Part shown: in pieces, positions 974 to 54,723 of the stretch
Layout: the number at the start of each line of letters is the position of its first letter
Position numbering within the stretch: the first letter of the stretch is position 1
NCBI GenBank assembly: GCA_965231005.1
Contig: OZ246405.1
Span: forward strand, 866,709 to 930,708
DNA from: an uncultured Gammaproteobacteria bacterium
Lineage (GTDB): Bacteria > Patescibacteriota > Patescibacteriia > Magasanikbacterales > UBA922
DNA: 64,000 bases
Reading direction: 5' to 3'
The notes under the pieces: generated by a model
The model's input: only the letters and a program-made list of their open reading frames with translations
Databases searched by the model: none
What the model was told of the DNA's origin: nothing
Position numbers and translations under genes: made by a program

Positions 974-3904
974 ATGCCAAAGAAATTAAACAAATCACAA
1001 CAAGATGCCGTCAATATAATTGACGGCCCTCTTTTAATTATTGCAGGAGCTGGAACAGGGAAGACTACTGTGATTACTGAAAAAATTTCACACCTTGTCA
1101 AAAGTGGAAAAGCAAAGCCAGAAGAAATTTTAGCACTCACGTTTACAGATAAGGCAGCAGAAGAAATGAAAGAGCGTGTTGATGATATGCTTAACATTGG
1201 ATATGTTGATTTGCAAATATCAACTTTTCACACCTTTTGTCAGCGTCTCCTTGAACAATTTGGCATTGACATTGGAATAAGTAATCATTTTAAACTTCTT
1301 ACAGAAACAGATGCATGGCTCTTGCTTCGACAGCACATGCTTGATCTAGATCTTGATTATTATAGACCAGCAGGTAATCCAGCAAGGCATATTCATGAAT
1401 TATTAAAACATTTTTCAAAATGTAAAGATGAATTAATTTCTCCAGCACAGTATCTTGAATATGCAGAGAATATAAAGCTTGATAAAGATGATGTTCATGG
1501 AGAGGAAAAAAGCAGACTTACTGAGATTGCAAATGCGTATCATGCATATAACCAACTTCTTTTAGATAACAATGCATTGGATTTTGGTGATTTGATGTAT
1601 TATACCGTTTCTCTTTTGGAAAAAAGAAAAAAGATTAAAGAGAATCTTCAGCAGCGGTTTAAATATATTTTGATTGATGAATTTCAAGACGTAAACTGGG
1701 CACAGTATGTCTTGATTACCTTGTTAGCAGAACATGCACAACTTACTGTTGTGGGAGATGATGATCAAAGTATCTATGCATTTCGTGGTTCAAACGTCTC
1801 TATTATTATGCGATTCAAAGAAGATTTTCCAAAAGCACAAGAAATTGTCCTAAGTGAAAATTTTCGCTCAACACAGAACATTCTTGACCTTGCATACAAA
1901 TCAATTCAAGAAAATAATCCAGATAGACTGGAGGCAAAATTTAGTATCAATAAAAAATTAACAGCGTTTAATGGGAAGTCAAAAGAGAAAAATTCAATTG
2001 TGCATCTTCATTATGCAACGCTTGACGAAGAAGTTTCAGGAGTTGTGAGTCAAATTAATTCCTTGAAAAAAAATAATCCAGATGTTACATGGGATGACAT
2101 TGCAATTCTTGCTCGAGCAAATACGCATGTAGAACCATTTATTCAAGCACTTGAGCAGTCAGGAATTCCATATGAATATCTTGCATCAAGTGGTTTATAT
2201 CGACAGAAAATTGTTCTGGATTGTTTTAATTATTTTAGAGTACTAGACAATAACAAGGAATCATCTGCAATTTATCGATTGCTTCGTCTTCCTTTTTTGA
2301 ACATGAGTGACTTTGACCTACAGCAGTTCACATCATTTTGCAAAAGAAAATCAATTTCATATGTACAAGGTCTTCGCAAAGGAGCTGAGATTGGTCTGAG
2401 CCAAGAGGGGATTGCTGCTTGTCAAAAGATTACCTCTTGGATTTCAGAGGGTATGAGAAGAGAGAGATATGAGAAACCAAGTGTTGTCTTGTACACCTTT
2501 TTGGAGGAAAGTGGATACCTTTCATATCTGACGCATGAGGAGAATCAAGGAAACACAGATGCAATGCGAGAGATTTTATTTTTAAAACAATTTTTTGATT
2601 TTATATCTGCATATGAAAAGGCTGTACCAGATGCACATGTTAGAAGTTTTGTAGAGCATTATACTGCGATTCTCGATTCTGGAGATGCAGGAGGATTGCA
2701 TCAGCCAACCGAAACACGTGATTCTGTAAATATTATGACTGTTCATGGATCAAAAGGATTAGAATTCAAATATGTGTTTCTTATCAACATGGTTGAAGAA
2801 AGGTTTCCGACACGTCGAAAAGGAAAGGGGATAGAAGTTCCAATTGAGCTTATTCATGAACAGCCACCAGAAGGAGACATTCATTATCAAGAAGAAAGAA
2901 GATTGTTTTATGTTGGATTAACACGTGCAAAAGAACAATTATTTTTGACAAGTGCAGATAATTATGGTGGAGTAAGAAAGAAAAAGCTTTCTCGTTTTCT
3001 TGCTGAAATTGGATATGATACAAATTGTGTTAAAGAAGCTGAAAAATCTTTGCTGACTTCTAAAAAAGAAACCAAGTCAGATAGGGGAGCTGTTGAATAT
3101 GATATTCCTAAAAAGTTTTCTTTCTCACAACTAAAGATGTATGAAATTTGTCCATACAAATATAAATTGGCTCATATTTTAAAACTCCCAATGAAAGGCA
3201 GTCCTCATTTTAGTTTTGGAAATACTATTCATAATACGCTTCAAAAGTTTTATGAAAAAGTAAAAGAACTCAATGGATTGAAGCAGGATTCTCTTTTTGG
3301 TCTTCCAAGTGAGTCATCTGTTCAGTCAAATATTCAAGTTCCATCTCTTGATGATCTTTTGAACATGTATGAAGAGTCATGGATTGAAGACTGGTATGAA
3401 AGTAAGTGGCAAAAAGAAACATATCATAAAAAAGGGCGTGACATTCTCAAAATCTTTTATGCTGCACAAGAAGATCATTGGACAATACCAATTAGCTTGG
3501 AAGGATTTTTTAAGATAAAACTTGGAGATGATATTTTGCATGGAAGAATTGATAGAATTGATAAGCAAGAAGACGGAACACTGGAAATTATTGATTATAA
3601 AACAGGAAAAGGCAAGGAAAAACTTGCATCTGGTGATAAAGATCAATTGCTTGTATATCAAATAGCAGCAGAAACATTGCCAGAGTATAGTAATGTTGGT
3701 TCTCCTGGGAAGTTGACGTTTTATTATGTAGAGGATAATATACAAACATCGTTTATTGGAAAAAATGAAGAACTTGAAAAGCTCAAAGATAAATTGATCC
3801 AGAAGATTGAAAAAATCAAACAAGGAGATTTCAAAGCAACACCAAACAAAATCATGTGTCGCAGGTGTGACTTTCGTGATATTTGCGAATTTCGTGCAAA
3901 GTAA
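974..3904 (+). CDS. UvrD/PcrA-family SF1 helicase fused to a C-terminal Cas4/AddB-like PD-(D/E)XK nuclease with a 4-Cys Fe-S motif
   Basis: 976 aa; Walker A GAGTGKTT near the N-terminus, DEFQD motif II and VGDDDQSIY motif III; C-terminus has RIDRIDK...EIIDYKTGK (nuclease motifs II/III) plus CPYKYK and CRRCDFRDIC (C-x2-C-x5-C Fe-S signature as in Cas4/AddB). Confidence 0.8.
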   Translation: MPKKLNKSQQDAVNIIDGPLLIIAGAGTGKTTVITEKISHLVKSGKAKPEEILALTFTDKAAEEMKERVDDMLNIGYVDLQISTFHTFCQRLLEQFGIDIGISNHFKLLTETDAWLLLRQHMLDLDLDYYRPAGNPARHIHELLKHFSKCKDELISPAQYLEYAENIKLDKDDVHGEEKSRLTEIANAYHAYNQLLLDNNALDFGDLMYYTVSLLEKRKKIKENLQQRFKYILIDEFQDVNWAQYVLITLLAEHAQLTVVGDDDQSIYAFRGSNVSIIMRFKEDFPKAQEIVLSENFRSTQNILDLAYKSIQENNPDRLEAKFSINKKLTAFNGKSKEKNSIVHLHYATLDEEVSGVVSQINSLKKNNPDVTWDDIAILARANTHVEPFIQALEQSGIPYEYLASSGLYRQKIVLDCFNYFRVLDNNKESSAIYRLLRLPFLNMSDFDLQQFTSFCKRKSISYVQGLRKGAEIGLSQEGIAACQKITSWISEGMRRERYEKPSVVLYTFLEESGYLSYLTHEENQGNTDAMREILFLKQFFDFISAYEKAVPDAHVRSFVEHYTAILDSGDAGGLHQPTETRDSVNIMTVHGSKGLEFKYVFLINMVEERFPTRRKGKGIEVPIELIHEQPPEGDIHYQEERRLFYVGLTRAKEQLFLTSADNYGGVRKKKLSRFLAEIGYDTNCVKEAEKSLLTSKKETKSDRGAVEYDIPKKFSFSQLKMYEICPYKYKLAHILKLPMKGSPHFSFGNTIHNTLQKFYEKVKELNGLKQDSLFGLPSESSVQSNIQVPSLDDLLNMYEESWIEDWYESKWQKETYHKKGRDILKIFYAAQEDHWTIPISLEGFFKIKLGDDILHGRIDRIDKQEDGTLEIIDYKTGKGKEKLASGDKDQLLVYQIAAETLPEYSNVGSPGKLTFYYVEDNIQTSFIGKNEELEKLKDKLIQKIEKIKQGDFKATPNKIMCRRCDFRDICEFRAK

Positions 3905-3990
3905 TATATACTAAGAATTAAGTATTGAGATTAAGTATTACGGCAATATATTTTTTTAATTTCAATTCTTAATTTTAATAATATTTTGTT

Positions 3991-4290
3991 ATGTCATCTT
4001 TTTCACCGATTGGTGATACAATTAACAAAAAAGGTAGTAGTTCTGATCTTACAAAGCAACTAGAAACAGGTGCAGTTCTTGACGCGGCAAAAGAGGTGTT
4101 TCAAGAACTTTTTTCGCCAGACTTAGCAGCACATGCAAACCCACAATATCTTAAAAATAGAACCCTTACTGTTAGTTGTACAAGCTCTGCTTTAGCACAA
4201 GAAATTAGGCTAAATCAAGCAAGAATTGTAGAAGGAATCAACGAAAAGCTTGGCAAAAAAGAGGTTGATAGAATACGATATCTGGCATAA
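3991..4290 (+). CDS. DUF721/DciA-like small protein (helicase-operon partner)
   Basis: 99 aa; C-terminal segment LTVSCTSSALAQEIRLNQARIVEGINEKLG...VDRIRY resembles the DUF721 (DciA) family pattern; weak, motif-level only. Confidence 0.4.
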   Translation: MSSFSPIGDTINKKGSSSDLTKQLETGAVLDAAKEVFQELFSPDLAAHANPQYLKNRTLTVSCTSSALAQEIRLNQARIVEGINEKLGKKEVDRIRYLA

Positions 4291-4790: not shown

Positions 4791-6041
4791 ATGCGTCAGT
4801 CTAGATTATTTACCAAAACATTAAAAAATGCACCTAAAGAAGAAGTGAGTATCAATGCTCAGTTCCTCATTCGTGGTGGATTTATTGAAAAAACAGGAGC
4901 AGGTATTTATACATATCTTCCTCTTGGAAAGAGAGTTCTTTCAAAGATTGAGACTATTATAAGACAAGAAATGGATGCTATTGATGGACAAGAGATTCTT
5001 ATGCCAGCACTCCATCCAAAAGAATATTGGGATAAGACAGGTCGCTGGGAAAGTTTTGGTGCATTGTTCAAATTGATAGGTCATGGTGACAAGGATTTTG
5101 CATTGGGTGCAACACATGAAGAGATCGTCACACCAACTGCGCAAAAATTTATTTTTTCATACAAAGACATGCCAAAATCTGTGTATCAGATTCAGACAAA
5201 ATTTAGAAATGAACCTCGTGCAAAATCTGGAGTGTTGCGTGGGAGAGAATTTTCAATGAAAGATATGTATTCTTTCCATACTGACCAGGAAAATGTGGAT
5301 ACATACTATGATGTTGTTGCAGAAGCCTATGAAAAAGTCTATGTACGATGTGGCATTGGTGAGCAAACACTCATGACCTATGCATCTGGAGGTGCCTTTT
5401 CAAAATATTCACATGAATTTCAAACACTTTCAGAAACAGGAGAAGACACTATTTTTGTCTGTGAAAGTTGTAAAAAAGCAGTGAATCAAGAAATTCTTGA
5501 AGAAGTAAAGCAGTCTTGCCCTGAATGTGGAAATAATTCTCTTCAAGAAAAGAATGCTATTGAGGTAGGGAATATTTTTAAATTGGGAACACGGTTTAGT
5601 GACGCATTCAAATTTACATACGCTTCTGAGGAAGGCGCAGAAAAACCTGTCCACATGGCGTGTTTTGGTCTTGGTCCATCACGTGTTATGGGAACTATTG
5701 TTGAAGTTCATCATGATGAAAACGGAATTATTTGGCCGCAAGAAGTCGCACCCTATCATGTGCATCTTGTTTCTTTGTGCAAAGATGAAAAAGATGTAGA
5801 AAAAGCAGATGCATTGTATAAGAAACTAACTGAGAAAGGGATAGAAGTTCTCTATGATGATAGACCAGATGCAAGAGCAGGAGAAAAGTTCGCAGATAGT
5901 GATTTAATTGGTATTCCAACACGTCTTGTGATTAGCCCAAAAACAATTGAAAAGGATTCAGTGGAAATAAAAGAACGTACAAGTTCAGAATCATCTCTTG
6001 TATTATTAACAGATATTGCTGCGCGCCTGTCCGACGCATAA
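4791..6041 (+). CDS. proS: Prolyl-tRNA synthetase, short form lacking the editing (INS) domain, with a Cys4 zinc-ribbon insert
   Basis: 416 aa; N-terminus MRQSRLFTKTLKNAPKE...YTYLPLG and class II motifs (FRNEPR, GREFSMKDMYSF) match ProRS; CESCKK...CPECG insert; C-terminal anticodon-binding domain. Confidence 0.85.
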   Translation: MRQSRLFTKTLKNAPKEEVSINAQFLIRGGFIEKTGAGIYTYLPLGKRVLSKIETIIRQEMDAIDGQEILMPALHPKEYWDKTGRWESFGALFKLIGHGDKDFALGATHEEIVTPTAQKFIFSYKDMPKSVYQIQTKFRNEPRAKSGVLRGREFSMKDMYSFHTDQENVDTYYDVVAEAYEKVYVRCGIGEQTLMTYASGGAFSKYSHEFQTLSETGEDTIFVCESCKKAVNQEILEEVKQSCPECGNNSLQEKNAIEVGNIFKLGTRFSDAFKFTYASEEGAEKPVHMACFGLGPSRVMGTIVEVHHDENGIIWPQEVAPYHVHLVSLCKDEKDVEKADALYKKLTEKGIEVLYDDRPDARAGEKFADSDLIGIPTRLVISPKTIEKDSVEIKERTSSESSLVLLTDIAARLSDA

Positions 6042-44358: not shown

Positions 44359-44557
44359 AGTATGAAGAGAAACTAGTGAATAATGTTCCAAACCTGTTAC
44401 TGTAAAACAAAACTCGACTTTGTTCCTCTCACAGTACGATCTGATACGCGGCATTATAGCACAGAAGGTCTATTTTGTCAAGGATTGTCGGAAAAGGAAT
44501 AAAAATCAAATACTCTCTAAAACAAAAGACCCAAACAAGAAAGTTGGGTCTTATCTG

Positions 44558-44630
44558 CTCCGCGGGCCGGACTCGAACCGGCGACAAATTGGTTAACAGC
44601 CAACTGCTCTACCAACTGAGCTACCGCGGA
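44558..44630 (-). tRNA. tRNA-Asn (GTT)
   Basis: Cloverleaf readable by eye: acceptor TCCGCGG/CCGCGGA, D-arm TAGCTCAGTTGGTAGAGC, anticodon loop CTGTTAA, T-arm GGTTCGAGTCC; CCA not encoded. Confidence 0.85.
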
Positions 44631-44740
44631 ATAAATTGTATGTCTCTCATTCAAACAACGATAGTTTACTCACCAGCTTATCCGTACAAATTTTGAAAAA
44701 TGTGTACAAAAGCATTGAGTAACCTAACATAAAATACCAA

Positions 44741-44824
44741 CTGTCCCGACGCTCCGACCTTGTCGGAGGTACGGGACTCCGGACAAAACGCAAAGCGTTT
44801 TCGTCGGAGAGCTACCGCGGAATA
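44741..44824 (-). repeat. Conserved structured element (two hairpins) plus a 16-bp direct copy of the tRNA-Asn 5' end; copy A of a two-member family
   Basis: 44741-44808 has 18+14 nt identical to copy B at 48054-48120 and forms hairpins GTCCCG-ACG-CTCCGAC/GTCGGAG-GTA-CGGGAC and AAAACGC-AAA-GCGTTTT; 44809-44824 exactly equals 44618-44633 (tRNA-Asn nt 1-13 plus 3 nt of flank). Confidence 0.55.
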
Positions 44825-44871
44825 TAAAGACGAAGAAAAGTATACAAAAAAAGACTAAAAAAGTCAATTCC

Positions 44872-45384
44872 CTATTTATCCTCAGCTAGGGATGTTTTTT
44901 TCATAATTAAAAATCCACCAGAAGAGATGGCAACAAATAAAAAGAAGCTAAATACTTCTGCAGTTAGTAATCCAAATAATAGCTTTAGAAAACTAAAGTC
45001 AATGGAGTGAAGGTATAAAGGAAAAGTTATGCCAAAGAAAAGGACAAACTGAATAAGCTCTGCTAACCAGAATGCAATAGAAATGCTTTTTGCATATGTT
45101 CTTATTTTTGTGCCTTCATAGTCTGCTTTCGACAAAAAGAAAATTGGAAGTGCTGCTGGAAGAAAAAAATAGAATATTGTGTACTCTATATTTGAAACAA
45201 GACGTTGGAAACGTTGGTCACCAGAAAATAAATGAAGAATAAGAGTTTTCAGCAAAATAAAAAAAAGCTTCACAAAAATTACTATTCTTGCAATTTTAGG
45301 AAAAGCTTCCCTCCTTTTTGATTGTATCATAGTAAAAATGACAGACGAGTAAAAATGTTGCGAGTGGGCTATGTCAAAAGACAC
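44872..45384 (-). CDS. Hypothetical polytopic membrane protein
   Basis: 170 aa, hydrophobic; no motif. Confidence 0.35.
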   Translation of the reverse strand: MSFDIAHSQHFYSSVIFTMIQSKRREAFPKIARIVIFVKLFFILLKTLILHLFSGDQRFQRLVSNIEYTIFYFFLPAALPIFFLSKADYEGTKIRTYAKSISIAFWLAELIQFVLFFGITFPLYLHSIDFSFLKLLFGLLTAEVFSFFLFVAISSGGFLIMKKTSLAEDK

Positions 45385-45405
45385 AGCCCACCCACAGATG
45401 ACAGG

Positions 45406-45969
45406 CTAATTGGCACCGACCATATCACAGAGCCACGGACCCCACTTGCAGGTGATGTACCAAGCATCGCCACCATTTTCCCAGTTCGCGTACCAGCAAG
45501 CTTTTTGCCAAACCTTCTTTCTCCTCTGGCATTCCACACTGAATGAGAAGTGAGTCCAAGACTGGCCTTTTTTGCTTGCATAAGCTTCCTTGTACGACGA
45601 CAGATCAGTGAGCTCGAGTACGATATCCCTGTTCAAGTCTTCCTTGCGCAGTGTTGACCGAAGAGATCCTTTCGTTTGATGCACGAATGCCGCATGGACG
45701 CGAACGACATCATGATCGTTGATGTTGGCAGAGAAAAAGCCTTGCTCTCCAGTCTTCACGATGAAGTAGGGAGAATCAGGATCGTCTCCGGTCTCGATGA
45801 GCACGTCAGCATTTGCGATCGGTGCACCTTCGAACATGACCTGACCACTCAGCTGGTCGCTGGTGGGCTGCTGATCAACAGCATCGAAATCAGCAGCACA
45901 GCCGGTCATTGCGAAGGCAATGAAAAGAGTGAAAAGAAACAGTTGCTTTGAAACATATTTGAAAGACAT
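45406..45969 (-). CDS. Lipoprotein with a carboxypeptidase-regulatory-like beta-sandwich domain and a Cys/Trp-rich C-terminal tail; GC-rich (~52%) island
   Basis: Start MSFKYVSK at 45969 with AGGGAGG SD 8 nt upstream; lipobox FAMTGC; SGQVMFEGAPIANADVLIETGDD...FFSANI resembles CarboxypepD_reg/transthyretin-like domains; tail CQRRKKVWQKACWYANWENGGDAWYITCKWGPWLC. Confidence 0.55.
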   Translation of the reverse strand: MSFKYVSKQLFLFTLFIAFAMTGCAADFDAVDQQPTSDQLSGQVMFEGAPIANADVLIETGDDPDSPYFIVKTGEQGFFSANINDHDVVRVHAAFVHQTKGSLRSTLRKEDLNRDIVLELTDLSSYKEAYASKKGQSWTHFSFSVECQRRKKVWQKACWYANWENGGDAWYITCKWGPWLCDMVGAN

Positions 45970-46140
45970 TAGTAGTCCCTCCCTTATGTAGAATCCTTGA
46001 TTTCTGAAACAACCCTCGTGGTTATTACACAATCAAGATAGTTTGATTATTATAAATCTATTTTAGTTTGTAAAATAAATCGCCAAAAAACCCTCAAAAT
46101 TAAACAAAAGTGAAAATAGCACGAATTTTTTCAAGCAAAA

Positions 46141-47857: not shown

Positions 47858-47912
47858 TTATACCACAAAAATAAAAACAATCAGGATGGTGATTGTTAAT
47901 AGAATTGAGTAG

Positions 47913-47986
47913 AGCCACCTGTGAGGATCGAACTCACGACCTACGCGTTACGAGTGCGTCGCTCTAGCCAACTGAGCTAAGGTGGC
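47913..47986 (-). tRNA. tRNA-Thr (CGT)
   Basis: Acceptor GCCACCT/AGGTGGC, D-arm TAGCTCAGTTGGCTAGAGC, anticodon loop CTCGTAA, T-arm GTGAGTTCGATCCTCAC. Confidence 0.8.
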
Positions 47987-48053
47987 GTACCAAACTAGGT
48001 ATACTACAAAAAGTAGTACTGGATTTAAACTGTGTCAAGTATCAATCCAAAAA

Positions 48054-48136
48054 CTGTCCCGACGCTCCGACTTCGTCGGAGGTACGGGATTCCGACTGAA
48101 CGCAAGGCGTTCACGTCGTAAAGCTAAGGTGGCGTA
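48054..48136 (-). repeat. Copy B of the conserved structured element plus a 15-bp direct copy of the tRNA-Thr 5' end
   Basis: 48054-48120 matches copy A (inner helix TGAACGC-AAG-GCGTTCA carries compensatory changes relative to AAAACGC/GCGTTTT); 48122-48136 exactly equals 47975-47989 (tRNA-Thr nt 1-12 plus 3 nt flank); on the minus strand the outer hairpin is followed by AGTTTTTGG. Confidence 0.55.
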
Positions 48137-48144
48137 GTCAGTGG

Positions 48145-48477
48145 CTAGGATACTTCAAGACGAGGGATAATGTCAATTGGGGGTTCTTCGTATGGATGCA
48201 CTTTTTTAATAACATCAATAACTTCTTTTACCTTATCTTTATGACAGAGTGTTTCGAGTACAACTTCTTCAACTTCTTCTGGTGTTCCTATTGCTCCCAC
48301 AGCAGGGTTTGCTCCTGGAAGGGGTGTGAAACGTCCAATAACGTTATATGATCCGCTACAATGCGAATAATTGCCTTGCACACCTGCACCAGCATCTCCT
48401 ATCGCCTGACGTACTTTTTCAGCTGAGTCTACTGGTGTAGACACAACTATTTTTACAAAATCAGATTCTTGTAACAT
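48145..48477 (-). CDS. Small PII/CutA-like (GlnB-fold) protein, Nif3-insert-like
   Basis: 110 aa; VKIVVSTPVDSAEKV...HPYEEPPIDIIP resembles CutA1/Nif3-associated GlnB-like domains; weak. Confidence 0.4.
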   Translation of the reverse strand: MLQESDFVKIVVSTPVDSAEKVRQAIGDAGAGVQGNYSHCSGSYNVIGRFTPLPGANPAVGAIGTPEEVEEVVLETLCHKDKVKEVIDVIKKVHPYEEPPIDIIPRLEVS

Positions 48478-54545: not shown

Positions 54546-54618
54546 GGTCCGGTAGCTCAGCTGGTAGAGCAGCAGCCTTTTAAGCTGATGGTCCTGGGTT
54601 CGAGCCCCAGCCGGATCA
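54546..54618 (+). tRNA. tRNA-Lys (TTT)
   Basis: Acceptor GGTCCGG/CCGGATC, D-arm TAGCTCAGCTGGTAGAGC, anticodon loop CTTTTAA, T-arm CTGGGTTCGAGCCCCAG. Confidence 0.85.
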
Positions 54619-54626
54619 CAAAAAAA

Positions 54627-54646: not shown

Positions 54647-54723
54647 GAGTGAGTAGGCTGGGTGAGATTTTGTAACCAATGCAATATGGTTACAAAAAAG
54701 AGGCTCTGTTGGATCACAAAGAA

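Follow-up and report, generated by a model that had tools for sequence, protein, structure and literature searches.

Two tRNA genes preceded by split copies of their own 5' ends

The window analysed here, a stretch of 64,000 nucleotides (nt) of contig OZ246405.1 from an uncultured bacterium of the Patescibacteriota (Magasanikbacterales), is AT-rich (approximately 36% GC) and encodes FtsE/FtsX, TypA, a Mur ligase and similar genes. Two of its tRNA genes, tRNA-Asn(GTT) and tRNA-Thr(CGT), are each preceded by a second copy of their own 5' end, which is interrupted by a GC-rich double hairpin (Table 1). In the following, F denotes the displaced 5' part, H the double hairpin, d the tRNA sequence resumed after it and T the complete, functional tRNA, with the suffix A for the tRNA-Asn copy and B for the tRNA-Thr copy.

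An initial annotation of the region upstream of tRNA-Asn, made from the sequence alone, had described a perfect 16-bp direct repeat of tRNA-Asn nt 1-13 plus 3 nt of flank, and next to it two hairpins. The repeat is exact, and the hairpins (44743-44777 and 44777-44809) were found where they had been placed. However, the direct copy is not merely a 16-mer, since the tRNA sequence resumes after the hairpins with CAGTTGGTA, which corresponds to nt 13-21 of tRNA-Asn. Copy B is built in the same way: 15 nt adjoining its hairpins are identical to positions -3 to +12 of tRNA-Thr, and CAGTT (nt 13-17) follows on the other side. Both this second repeat and the resumption after the hairpins in either copy had been overlooked before. 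Since the tRNA sequence continues beyond the hairpins, the upstream copy is a tRNA 5' fragment that is split in the D arm by a double hairpin of approximately 65 nt. The chance that a given 15- or 16-mer recurs within 300 nt is about 1e-7, and such a recurrence was seen at both copies, each time with the local tRNA. Over the repeats, F and T do not differ in the window.

The hairpin modules of the two copies share two runs of identical sequence, as had been noticed before, and these are 20 nt (GTCGGAGCGTCGGGACAGTT) and 15 nt (TCCCGTACCTCCGAC) long and not 18 and 14 nt. In shuffled versions of the window, the number of chance matches was 0 for the 20-nt run and about 0.2 for the 15-nt run. Beyond A and B, no further copy of the hairpins was found within the 64 kb.

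Table 1. Features of the two tRNA loci of the window
Feature	Position	Strand	Remarks
Sigma-70-like promoter (TTGACT, 17 nt, TATACT)	44839..44867	-	10/12 consensus matches; directly upstream of F_A; presumed original tRNA-Asn promoter
F_A, displaced tRNA-Asn 5' end (-3 to +13)	44809..44824	-	Exact 16-mer repeat of 44618-44633; boundary with H_A ambiguous by 1 nt
H_A, GC-rich double hairpin, CCGAC/GTCGG family	44744..44808	-	Fold z-scores; covariation over 12 copies
H_A hairpin 1 (tRNA orientation): CTCCGACG-AAAACGC-TTT-GCGTTTT-GTCCGGAG	within 44744..44808	-	
H_A hairpin 2 (tRNA orientation, after hairpin 1): TCCCGTACCTCCGAC-AAG-GTCGGAGCGTCGGGA	within 44744..44808	-	
d_A, resumed tRNA-Asn copy (CAGTTGGTA, nt 13-21)	44735..44743	-	
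Spacer A, AT-rich, no intact ORF	44634..44734	-	Position of the GIY-YIG gene in related loci
Functional tRNA-Asn(GTT) with 3 nt of 5' flank	44557..44633	-	tRNA gene 44557-44630; second copy of the 16-mer at 44618-44633
Sigma-70-like promoter (TTGACA, 18 nt, TATCCT)	48147..48176	-	Inside the end of the upstream 110-aa ORF; kept in relatives
F_B, displaced tRNA-Thr 5' end (-3 to +12)	48122..48136	-	Identical to 47975-47989; sits where the tRNA of the relatives starts
H_B, second double-hairpin module	48057..48121	-	Runs shared with H_A; fold
d_B, resumed tRNA-Thr copy (CAGTT, nt 13-17)	48052..48056	-	
Spacer B	47990..48051	-	Part of the 147-nt segment missing from orthologous loci
Functional tRNA-Thr(CGT) with 3 nt of 5' flank	47912..47989	-	tRNA gene 47912-47986; second copy of the 15-mer at 47975-47989
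ORF, open reading frame; aa, amino acids.

Empty tRNA-Thr loci in related lineages

The closest relatives found (FtsE 81% identical; among the closest FtsE proteins, the named ones are labelled Magasanikbacteria) keep the gene order of the window around tRNA-Thr, which is ATPase, Translin, Mur ligase, DivIC, PpiC, an open reading frame (ORF) of 110 amino acids (aa), tRNA-Thr, FtsE, FtsX and tRNA-Gln. In these relatives the stop codon of the 110-aa ORF is followed by 10 nt and the tRNA, whereas in the window it is followed by 11 nt, F_B, 147 extra nt (H, spacer and second 5' end) and only then by the remainder of the tRNA. The site is also empty in two further lineages (empty loci L056-58, L064-67 and L068-70, compared with the occupied one of the window), the contrast being one between lineages at approximately 75-81% FtsE identity and not one within a single population. 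Since the 147-nt segment is missing from the orthologous loci, the tRNA-Thr copy is an insertion into a tRNA gene, and the gene is restored by the second 5' part. The earlier idea of a tRNA-targeted integration scar was thus right in essence, given these empty sites and the same layout around a nuclease gene in related loci.

The promoter-like site in the end of the 110-aa ORF is conserved and lies directly before tRNA-Thr in the relatives, but before F_B in the window. As the conserved site precedes F, F marks the original start of the tRNA gene. A scan of the window called no terminator at H and no promoter between H and either tRNA, so that both tRNAs are probably made from their original promoters with long structured leaders. 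From the sequence we infer that transcription of tRNA-Asn and tRNA-Thr probably passes through fragment, hairpins and spacer, and that the transcripts are subsequently trimmed by RNase P.

The relatives have their tRNA-Asn elsewhere, namely 14 nt after tRNA-Gln, and the downstream genes of the window differ. In the window, two ORFs of 208 and 170 aa (44872-46032, minus strand) are located between tRNA-Gln and the tRNA-Asn scar. The only Pfam match of the 208-aa ORF is a weak one below the threshold to DUF4198, and a search of the protein collection with the 170-aa ORF, which lies upstream of copy A, returned only this ORF itself. In two Magasanikbacteria-like loci (L068 3790-4170 and L072 1990-2370), an insert of approximately 330 nt is present in the anticodon loop of tRNA-Asn, and the tRNA is not called by ARAGORN; this insert matches the group I introns of Patescibacteria tRNA-Asn (PMC13011429).

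Nuclease cassettes in tRNA genes of other Patescibacteria

Genome and metagenome collections were scanned with exact patterns that required the fixed hairpin core. In other Patescibacteria the module was thereby detected at 3 loci of the genome collection and, as true members, at 9 of the metagenomes; of the 33 pattern matches in metagenomes, about two thirds were rejected as due to chance, since they lie in GC-rich DNA and lack the flanking stem sequence of the family. Thirteen family copies in different genomes were obtained, 6 of them away from tRNAs. The initial annotation had made its case depend on more copies and on conserved hairpins, and both were found: copies exist in other Patescibacteria and their stems covary (see below). 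In L002, the module is located between a copy of tRNA-Phe nt 1-11 and CTCAGTTGG, 9 nt before the real tRNA-Phe. In four loci found by the hairpin pattern (L009, L016, L018 and L034), H is separated from the tRNA by an ORF of 82-88 aa, which consists of a GIY-YIG domain alone (Pfam PF01541, E-values of 1e-14 to 1e-16, 53-60 bits compared with a cut-off of 22.6).

Since these loci had been selected by the hairpin, the sampling was repeated by protein similarity alone. The homology search gave 139 relatives, almost all of them 86-88 aa long, and the informative names among them were Patescibacteria or Kerfeldbacteria. In this decisive sample, seven of the eight loci looked up are organised alike: F and its double hairpin are followed by the remaining D-arm sequence, a short leader and the ORF, and an intact tRNA-Arg comes 0-10 nt past the stop codon. 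In the eighth (L063), hairpins and ORF are present but a tRNA is missing. At other tRNAs of the same loci, namely tRNA-Ser (L037, L040), tRNA-Gly (L002) and tRNA-Ile (L009), this layout recurs with GIY-YIG ORFs that are more distant and with hairpins of quite different sequence. Taken together, 18 tRNA genes carry units of this kind, some of them arranged in tandem (15 units contain the ORF and 5 units are clearly gene-less), and the junction positions are consistent: F extends from nt 1 to 10-16 (1 to 21 in one family), the hairpin insert comprises 30-70 nt, the resumed tRNA sequence reaches to approximately nt 21-26, an AT-rich leader of 3-15 nt follows, the ORF has approximately 260 nt (about 86 aa), and the gap before T is 0-10 nt, the end of the ORF sometimes overlapping the tRNA. 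As no GIY-YIG ORF is present in the spacers of the window, copies A and B were classified as gene-less derivatives and not as full members. Gene-less units of the same sort occur in L002 and L037. In copies A and B the segment between the direct repeats comprises 133-175 nt compared with approximately 350 nt in full units.

In the aligned GIY-YIG ORFs, the columns of the catalytic residues (Tyr, Tyr, Arg, His and Glu) show no or almost no variation, and judging from these residues the cassette nuclease looks active. Among the solved structures of the PDB, its nearest relatives are two UPF0213 proteins (1zg2 and 1ywl) and Slx1, a structure-specific nuclease. A profile search yielded 460 cluster representatives at E ≤ 1e-10, and the sampled and the named members are from Patescibacteria. 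Viral contigs gave no relative of the nuclease and four raw matches to the hairpin pattern.

In some loci the displaced and the functional 5' part differ. The displaced copy of L009 has C11-G24 where the functional tRNA has T11-A24, a compensated pair, and L060 has C13-G22 in the displaced and T13-A22 in the functional copy as well as C5 in F compared with a T5-A68 pair in T. A decaying pseudogene would lose its pairs, and the compensated differences therefore indicate two functional alleles. This is what would be expected if the new tRNA 5' part, or the whole tRNA, had been imported from the donor of the cassette. An apparent polymorphism among six contigs of one Kerfeldbacteria locus was dismissed, since they have the same sequence bar one base and assembly gaps and differ only in gene calling.

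Several further arrangements were observed around these tRNA genes. The stop codon of the nuclease ORF is the TAG at tRNA nt 8-10 in L018 (approximately 1365-1380) and L034 (approximately 5270-5290), and in L009 (2940-3000) the nuclease frame continues to the anticodon region of the tRNA. Where the ORF ends inside the tRNA, processing of the tRNA by RNase P would strip the stop codon from the mRNA. At a tRNA-Arg of L037 (9930-10437), a full unit of fragment, hairpins and ORF is followed by a gene-less unit, whose diverged hairpin module shows compensated changes, and then by the tRNA; in L040, tRNA-Ser(GCT) is likewise surrounded by nested fragments. The tRNA-Ile(TAT) cassette of L009 (10021-10470, minus strand) contains a single hairpin (CCTCTGGCCC...GGCCCGGAGG) twice in direct orientation. 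One copy splits the displaced fragment at nt 21/22; the other, immediately before the tRNA, falls in the end of the ORF and codes for the last residues of the protein.

There are also copies of tRNA 3' ends. They start in the T loop (e.g. GATTCCTGTCGAGGGCA) and are found at a distance of 56-266 nt on the downstream side of tRNA-Arg and tRNA-Ser genes that are intact (L040 3268-3780, L046 3305-3700, L037 419-640 and L035 600-960). Some are repeated twice with GC-rich hairpins between them, and in L035 a CCGAC-type module abuts such a fragment. The window itself has a diverged copy of the 3' end of tRNA-Lys(TTT) approximately 80 nt downstream of this gene (54602-54619 and 54700-54717, plus strand; GAGGCTCTGTTGGATCAC compared with GAGCCCCAGCCGGATCAC, 13 of 18 positions identical and GGATCACAAA exact) with two hairpins between the copies, which looks like a 3'-side counterpart of the 5' scars. 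In these genomes, invasion of tRNA genes seems to take place at either end.

Conservation and context of the double hairpin

The hairpins are constrained in their structure. Those of the window fold well below shuffled controls, with z-scores of -3.2 to -4.5 as RNA and -4.3 as DNA, and the inner hairpins of copies A and B (AAAACGC/GCGTTTT and TGAACGC/GCGTTCA) differ by two compensated pairs. In an alignment of 12 copies of the CCGAC type, 98.4% of the cells are paired, and there are 18 cells with a double change compared with 4.7 in shuffles, a number reached by none of 500 shuffles; shifting the partners destroys the pairing. The variation behind this covariation comes from the outer pairs of both hairpins, the core being fixed by the search pattern and hence uninformative. 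The pairs are almost exclusively of the Watson-Crick type, which, together with the occurrence of the module in both orientations, argues for a role of the hairpin at the DNA level, or for a need for a stable hairpin of any kind, more than for an RNA signal with a direction.

The ORFs that accompany CCGAC-type hairpins form one clade with at least 42% identity (at least 52% among those at tRNA-Arg), whereas those accompanied by other hairpin families share only 24-40% identity with this clade. Hairpin family, nuclease clade and tRNA identity are thus linked. In cassettes with distant ORFs, unrelated hairpin sequences hold the same place.

In L003 the module (approximately 3941-3996) is located in frame within an ORF of 250 aa for a methyltransferase (3419-4171, minus strand; peptide ...NPDAPTVSEVRDSDRKRRRGR...), just before the S-adenosylmethionine-binding domain. 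The module is also read through in L005 and L022, in the same frame as in L003. Rickettsia palindromic elements are palindromic mobile elements of AT-rich genomes, and by analogy the in-frame copies resemble them. With dispersed copies, compensated stems and an empty site, the module shows the characteristics of a miniature palindromic mobile element. Neither a target motif nor a target-site duplication for the module was found in the junction table and the family copies, and Rfam 15, including its group I introns, recognised only the tRNAs at gathering score and gave no match to the hairpin region at E-values up to 1. A closing of the D stem around the hairpins as a three-way junction was predicted in L009 only and was discarded as a general feature.

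Origin of the window copies

We consider it very likely that the two window copies are insertion scars of this cassette family. With somewhat less confidence, they are probably its gene-less (solo) scars, left by a mobile nuclease cassette that inserts in the 5' part of a tRNA gene and restores this gene in a homing-like manner. That the family spreads by homing-type break repair has about an even chance. In the direction of the tRNA, a full cassette would consist of the original promoter, the old 5' end (nt 1 to about 10-16), a double hairpin of 30-70 nt in the former D loop, what remains of the old D arm (up to about nt 21-26), a leader of 3-15 nt, the GIY-YIG ORF of about 86 aa and the intact tRNA. 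Insertion would break the resident tRNA gene but bring a complete new 5' part, so that the tRNA survives and the old 5' end is left as a fragment. The nuclease would break a tRNA gene that is still unoccupied, within the D arm or close to it, and repair would copy from the occupied allele, which amounts to homing without an intron, with the 5' part or the whole tRNA travelling along. The double hairpin would be an inherited, structurally constrained part of the upstream end of the cassette. Its interruption of the D arm may remove a second cleavage site or a recombination repeat, and it might be the recognition object of an Slx1/UPF0213-like nuclease that lacks a further domain; it may also move or persist alone. 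The window units would then have lost the nuclease gene or never had it.

Some observations weigh against this explanation. A nuclease gene was not found in the 64 kb by tblastn with three family proteins (nothing below E = 1), and a profile hidden Markov model run over all frames detected no significant remnant of the ORF in the spacers, the best spacer frame ranking 865 of 6006 among 2000 random window segments. A stretch of 10 aa in a spacer (NAFVHIFQNL) resembles the N-terminus of the nuclease (MNAFVYILKD), a resemblance that is unproven as a remnant. As there is no significant trace of the ORF, an origin by deletion is not shown, and the solo units could be non-autonomous and mobilised in trans. 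Moreover, in most loci the rebuilt tRNA keeps the D arm of the fragment, and a nuclease that recognises this region alone should also cut the tRNA of its own host. A cassette that changes to another tRNA species has to duplicate the 5' end of that tRNA, which simple homing does not explain, and the loci obtained by the pattern were picked with a fixed core sequence. Furthermore, the orientation of the module with respect to the tRNA is not constant, half of the family being opposite, its insertion points in the D arm vary from 10/11 to 15/16, and it is found alone in intergenic regions of L001, L005, L008, L022 and L030, where no tRNA fragment is present.

Orientation, insertion points and solitary copies fit an independent insertion as well as membership of the cassette. 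It is conceivable, though in our view rather unlikely, that the double hairpin is an autonomous miniature palindromic element comparable to Rickettsia palindromic elements, REPINs or the double-hairpin elements of fungal mitochondria, which inserts alone in D-arm-like sequence and accumulates in a dispensable fragment, the 5' duplication and the nuclease being separate matters. The tRNA-free copies, including the in-frame one of L003, and the inverted terminal feet CCGACG...CGTCGG would agree with this. However, all cassettes sampled by protein have a double hairpin at the same place even where the sequences are unrelated, the hairpin family tracks the nuclease clade, L063 retains the hairpins upstream of the ORF without any tRNA, no target-site duplication or target motif is evident, and not one hairpin-free fragment was seen among the 18 tRNA loci.

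The initial annotation had offered as its second possibility a conserved cis-acting RNA that doubles as the terminator of the upstream gene. A host RNA of this kind, be it a terminator or insulator or a structure of the pre-tRNA leader with the 5' copy as a decoy pairing with the tRNA 3' strand, would suit the stable and covarying hairpins, the T5 that follows the stem of copy B after three nt, and the position of the module between a gene end and a tRNA, where it would be part of the tRNA leader if the upstream promoters are used. Yet the terminator scan calls neither copy, and copy A as well as most family members lack a U tract. Three related lineages have tRNA-Thr directly after the same ORF without the module, the module occurs in both orientations and elsewhere inside a coding region, Rfam has no match, and covariation that keeps almost only Watson-Crick pairs is expected if both strands or the DNA matter. 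Since the original promoter lies upstream of H, termination at H would cut the tRNA off from its conserved promoter. The terminator reading is not supported by this, and we regard a host RNA in general as very unlikely. Even less can be said for the attL/attR-like part of the earlier scar idea, i.e. a scar of the att type left behind when an integrase-driven island or prophage was lost from the tRNA gene, which we consider extremely improbable. tRNA genes are classic integration sites, and direct repeats of a tRNA end do flank a short segment here. However, the repeat is located at the 5' end, is split by hairpins and continues past them, with lengths and positions that vary among tRNAs; the gene enclosed in relatives is a GIY-YIG nuclease and the segment has only 133-175 nt in the window and about 350 nt in full units. 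No recombinase gene was found near the window copies, and the gene tables of the related loci list none either except for an end fragment of L060 with a match to a Resolvase domain approximately 1.3 kb upstream; no integrase-bearing island was seen between the repeats of the 18 tRNA genes with units.

How a nuclease of this size finds its target leads to two more speculative ideas. The breakpoints at approximately -5 to -1, 10-16 and 21-26 map, in this order, to the acceptor-stem base, the D arm and the central part of a cloverleaf, which invites the thought of a structure-specific cut in a folded tRNA gene, although this is not proof. One could imagine the GIY-YIG protein of about 86 aa and the double hairpin as a minimal self-mobilising system, in which target recognition, lacking in the protein, comes from the structured nucleic acid. 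The nuclease would be guided either by DNA of the tRNA gene extruded as hairpin or cloverleaf or by an RNA from the tRNA promoter with the tRNA 5' fragment attached, and the breakpoints at the acceptor-stem base, the D arm and about nt 24-26 would be the footprint of an Slx1-like cut. We think that this is unlikely. A related proposal, to which we give a lower probability still, has the fragment and the hairpins as a guide-like or structural partner, acting as transcript or as extruded DNA, that gives the nuclease its target specificity. The order of flank-derived tRNA sequence, structured module and nuclease ORF parallels the upstream-end guide and scaffold of IscB-type elements, the nuclease has no DNA-binding domain and groups with the structure-specific Slx1/UPF0213, both hairpins share one stem motif that would suit two protomers, and the module co-varies with the nuclease clade. 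On the other hand, the adjacency of fragment and hairpins is a trivial outcome of insertion in a tRNA, the hairpins occur in both orientations and, as solo modules, elsewhere without tRNA sequence, and the rebuilt tRNA would be a perfect self-target.

Implications

If a homing-like nuclease cassette is indeed at the origin of these scars, it would represent a third way for a selfish nuclease gene to live in an essential gene, by rebuilding the front end at the DNA level and not by the splicing of an intron or intein. The protein of the cassette is about as small as a nuclease can be, and the presence of a nuclease without a DNA-binding domain at one place in tRNA genes raises a clear and testable question of how the target is found. 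Such cassettes would also explain stray tRNA fragments and GC-rich hairpins in AT-rich streamlined genomes, as well as some of the mis-annotated or over-extended small ORFs by tRNAs and the long structured leaders of tRNAs. For the annotation of the window, the outcome is two gene-less insertion scars and two displaced tRNA 5' fragments.

Comparison with known systems

A search of the full-text literature for GIY-YIG genes with tRNA genes, Patescibacteria, homing and hairpins found no description of these cassettes. No published description was found for the combination of a GIY-YIG gene that encodes the catalytic domain only, its location in bacterial tRNA transcription units and a displaced 5' fragment split by a hairpin. 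Replacement gene ends, double-hairpin elements, GIY-YIG homing near tRNAs and tRNA introns of Patescibacteria are each already known separately.

The free-standing GIY-YIG homing genes of phages, i.e. the seg genes of T4 with SegB in the T4 tRNA cluster, have been described in PMC2330249 and PMC2988022. Like the cassette, they are intron-free GIY-YIG genes adjoining tRNA genes, and they presumably spread in the way that is proposed for the cassette: the empty allele suffers a double-strand break, the occupied one serves for its repair, and the flanks are co-converted. However, Seg proteins have more than 200 aa and DNA-binding domains, while the cassette protein is a catalytic domain of about 86 aa alone and closest to UPF0213/Slx1. 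In further contrast to the seg genes, the cassette is located inside a tRNA transcription unit, has a displaced 5' fragment and always a double hairpin, and is chromosomal in Patescibacteria.

Mobile endonuclease ORFs of mitochondria that carry a replacement gene end are known from the gene hybrids of Glomus (Beaudet et al. 2013, as cited in PMC3787672). These gene hybrids, like the cassette, combine a nuclease gene with a copy of that part of the host gene which would otherwise be destroyed, displace the resident part and show allelic differences. They differ in affecting the 3' end of organellar protein genes without hairpin splitting, whereas the cassette affects the 5' part of bacterial chromosomal tRNA genes. 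Allomyces atp6 is a further mitochondrial example of a gene hybrid.

The module has counterparts in the GC-rich double-hairpin elements of Allomyces mitochondria (Paquin et al. 2000, likewise as cited in PMC3787672), the repetitive hairpin elements of sponges (PMC2800124) and the GC clusters of yeast mitochondria (PMC4478555). It shares with such GC-rich palindromic elements a short two-stem structure, AT-rich host genomes, compensated stems, dispersed and in-frame copies and an unknown mobilising enzyme. It differs from them in its physical and phylogenetic link with a nuclease gene and with one place, the D arm of a displaced tRNA fragment, a link that the cited papers do not describe for those elements.

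The cassette also bears some likeness to other elements of tRNA genes. Integrative elements target these genes and restore them with an element-borne copy by means of an integrase. As in the cassette, a duplicated segment keeps the tRNA functional and a partial tRNA copy remains at the far end. However, integrative elements rely on tyrosine or serine recombinases, usually use the 3' part of the tRNA with a short identical core and carry kilobases of cargo, whereas the cassette has no recombinase, a duplicated 5' part, a cargo of 130-350 nt and an interrupted repeat. Patescibacterial tRNA genes are moreover known to host group I introns (PMC13011429). These share with the cassette the phylum, the tRNA gene as a habitat of selfish elements and sometimes homing endonucleases, but their site is the anticodon loop, and a ribozyme excises them from the transcript, while the cassette has no ribozyme (no match in Rfam) and the gene is rebuilt at the level of the DNA.

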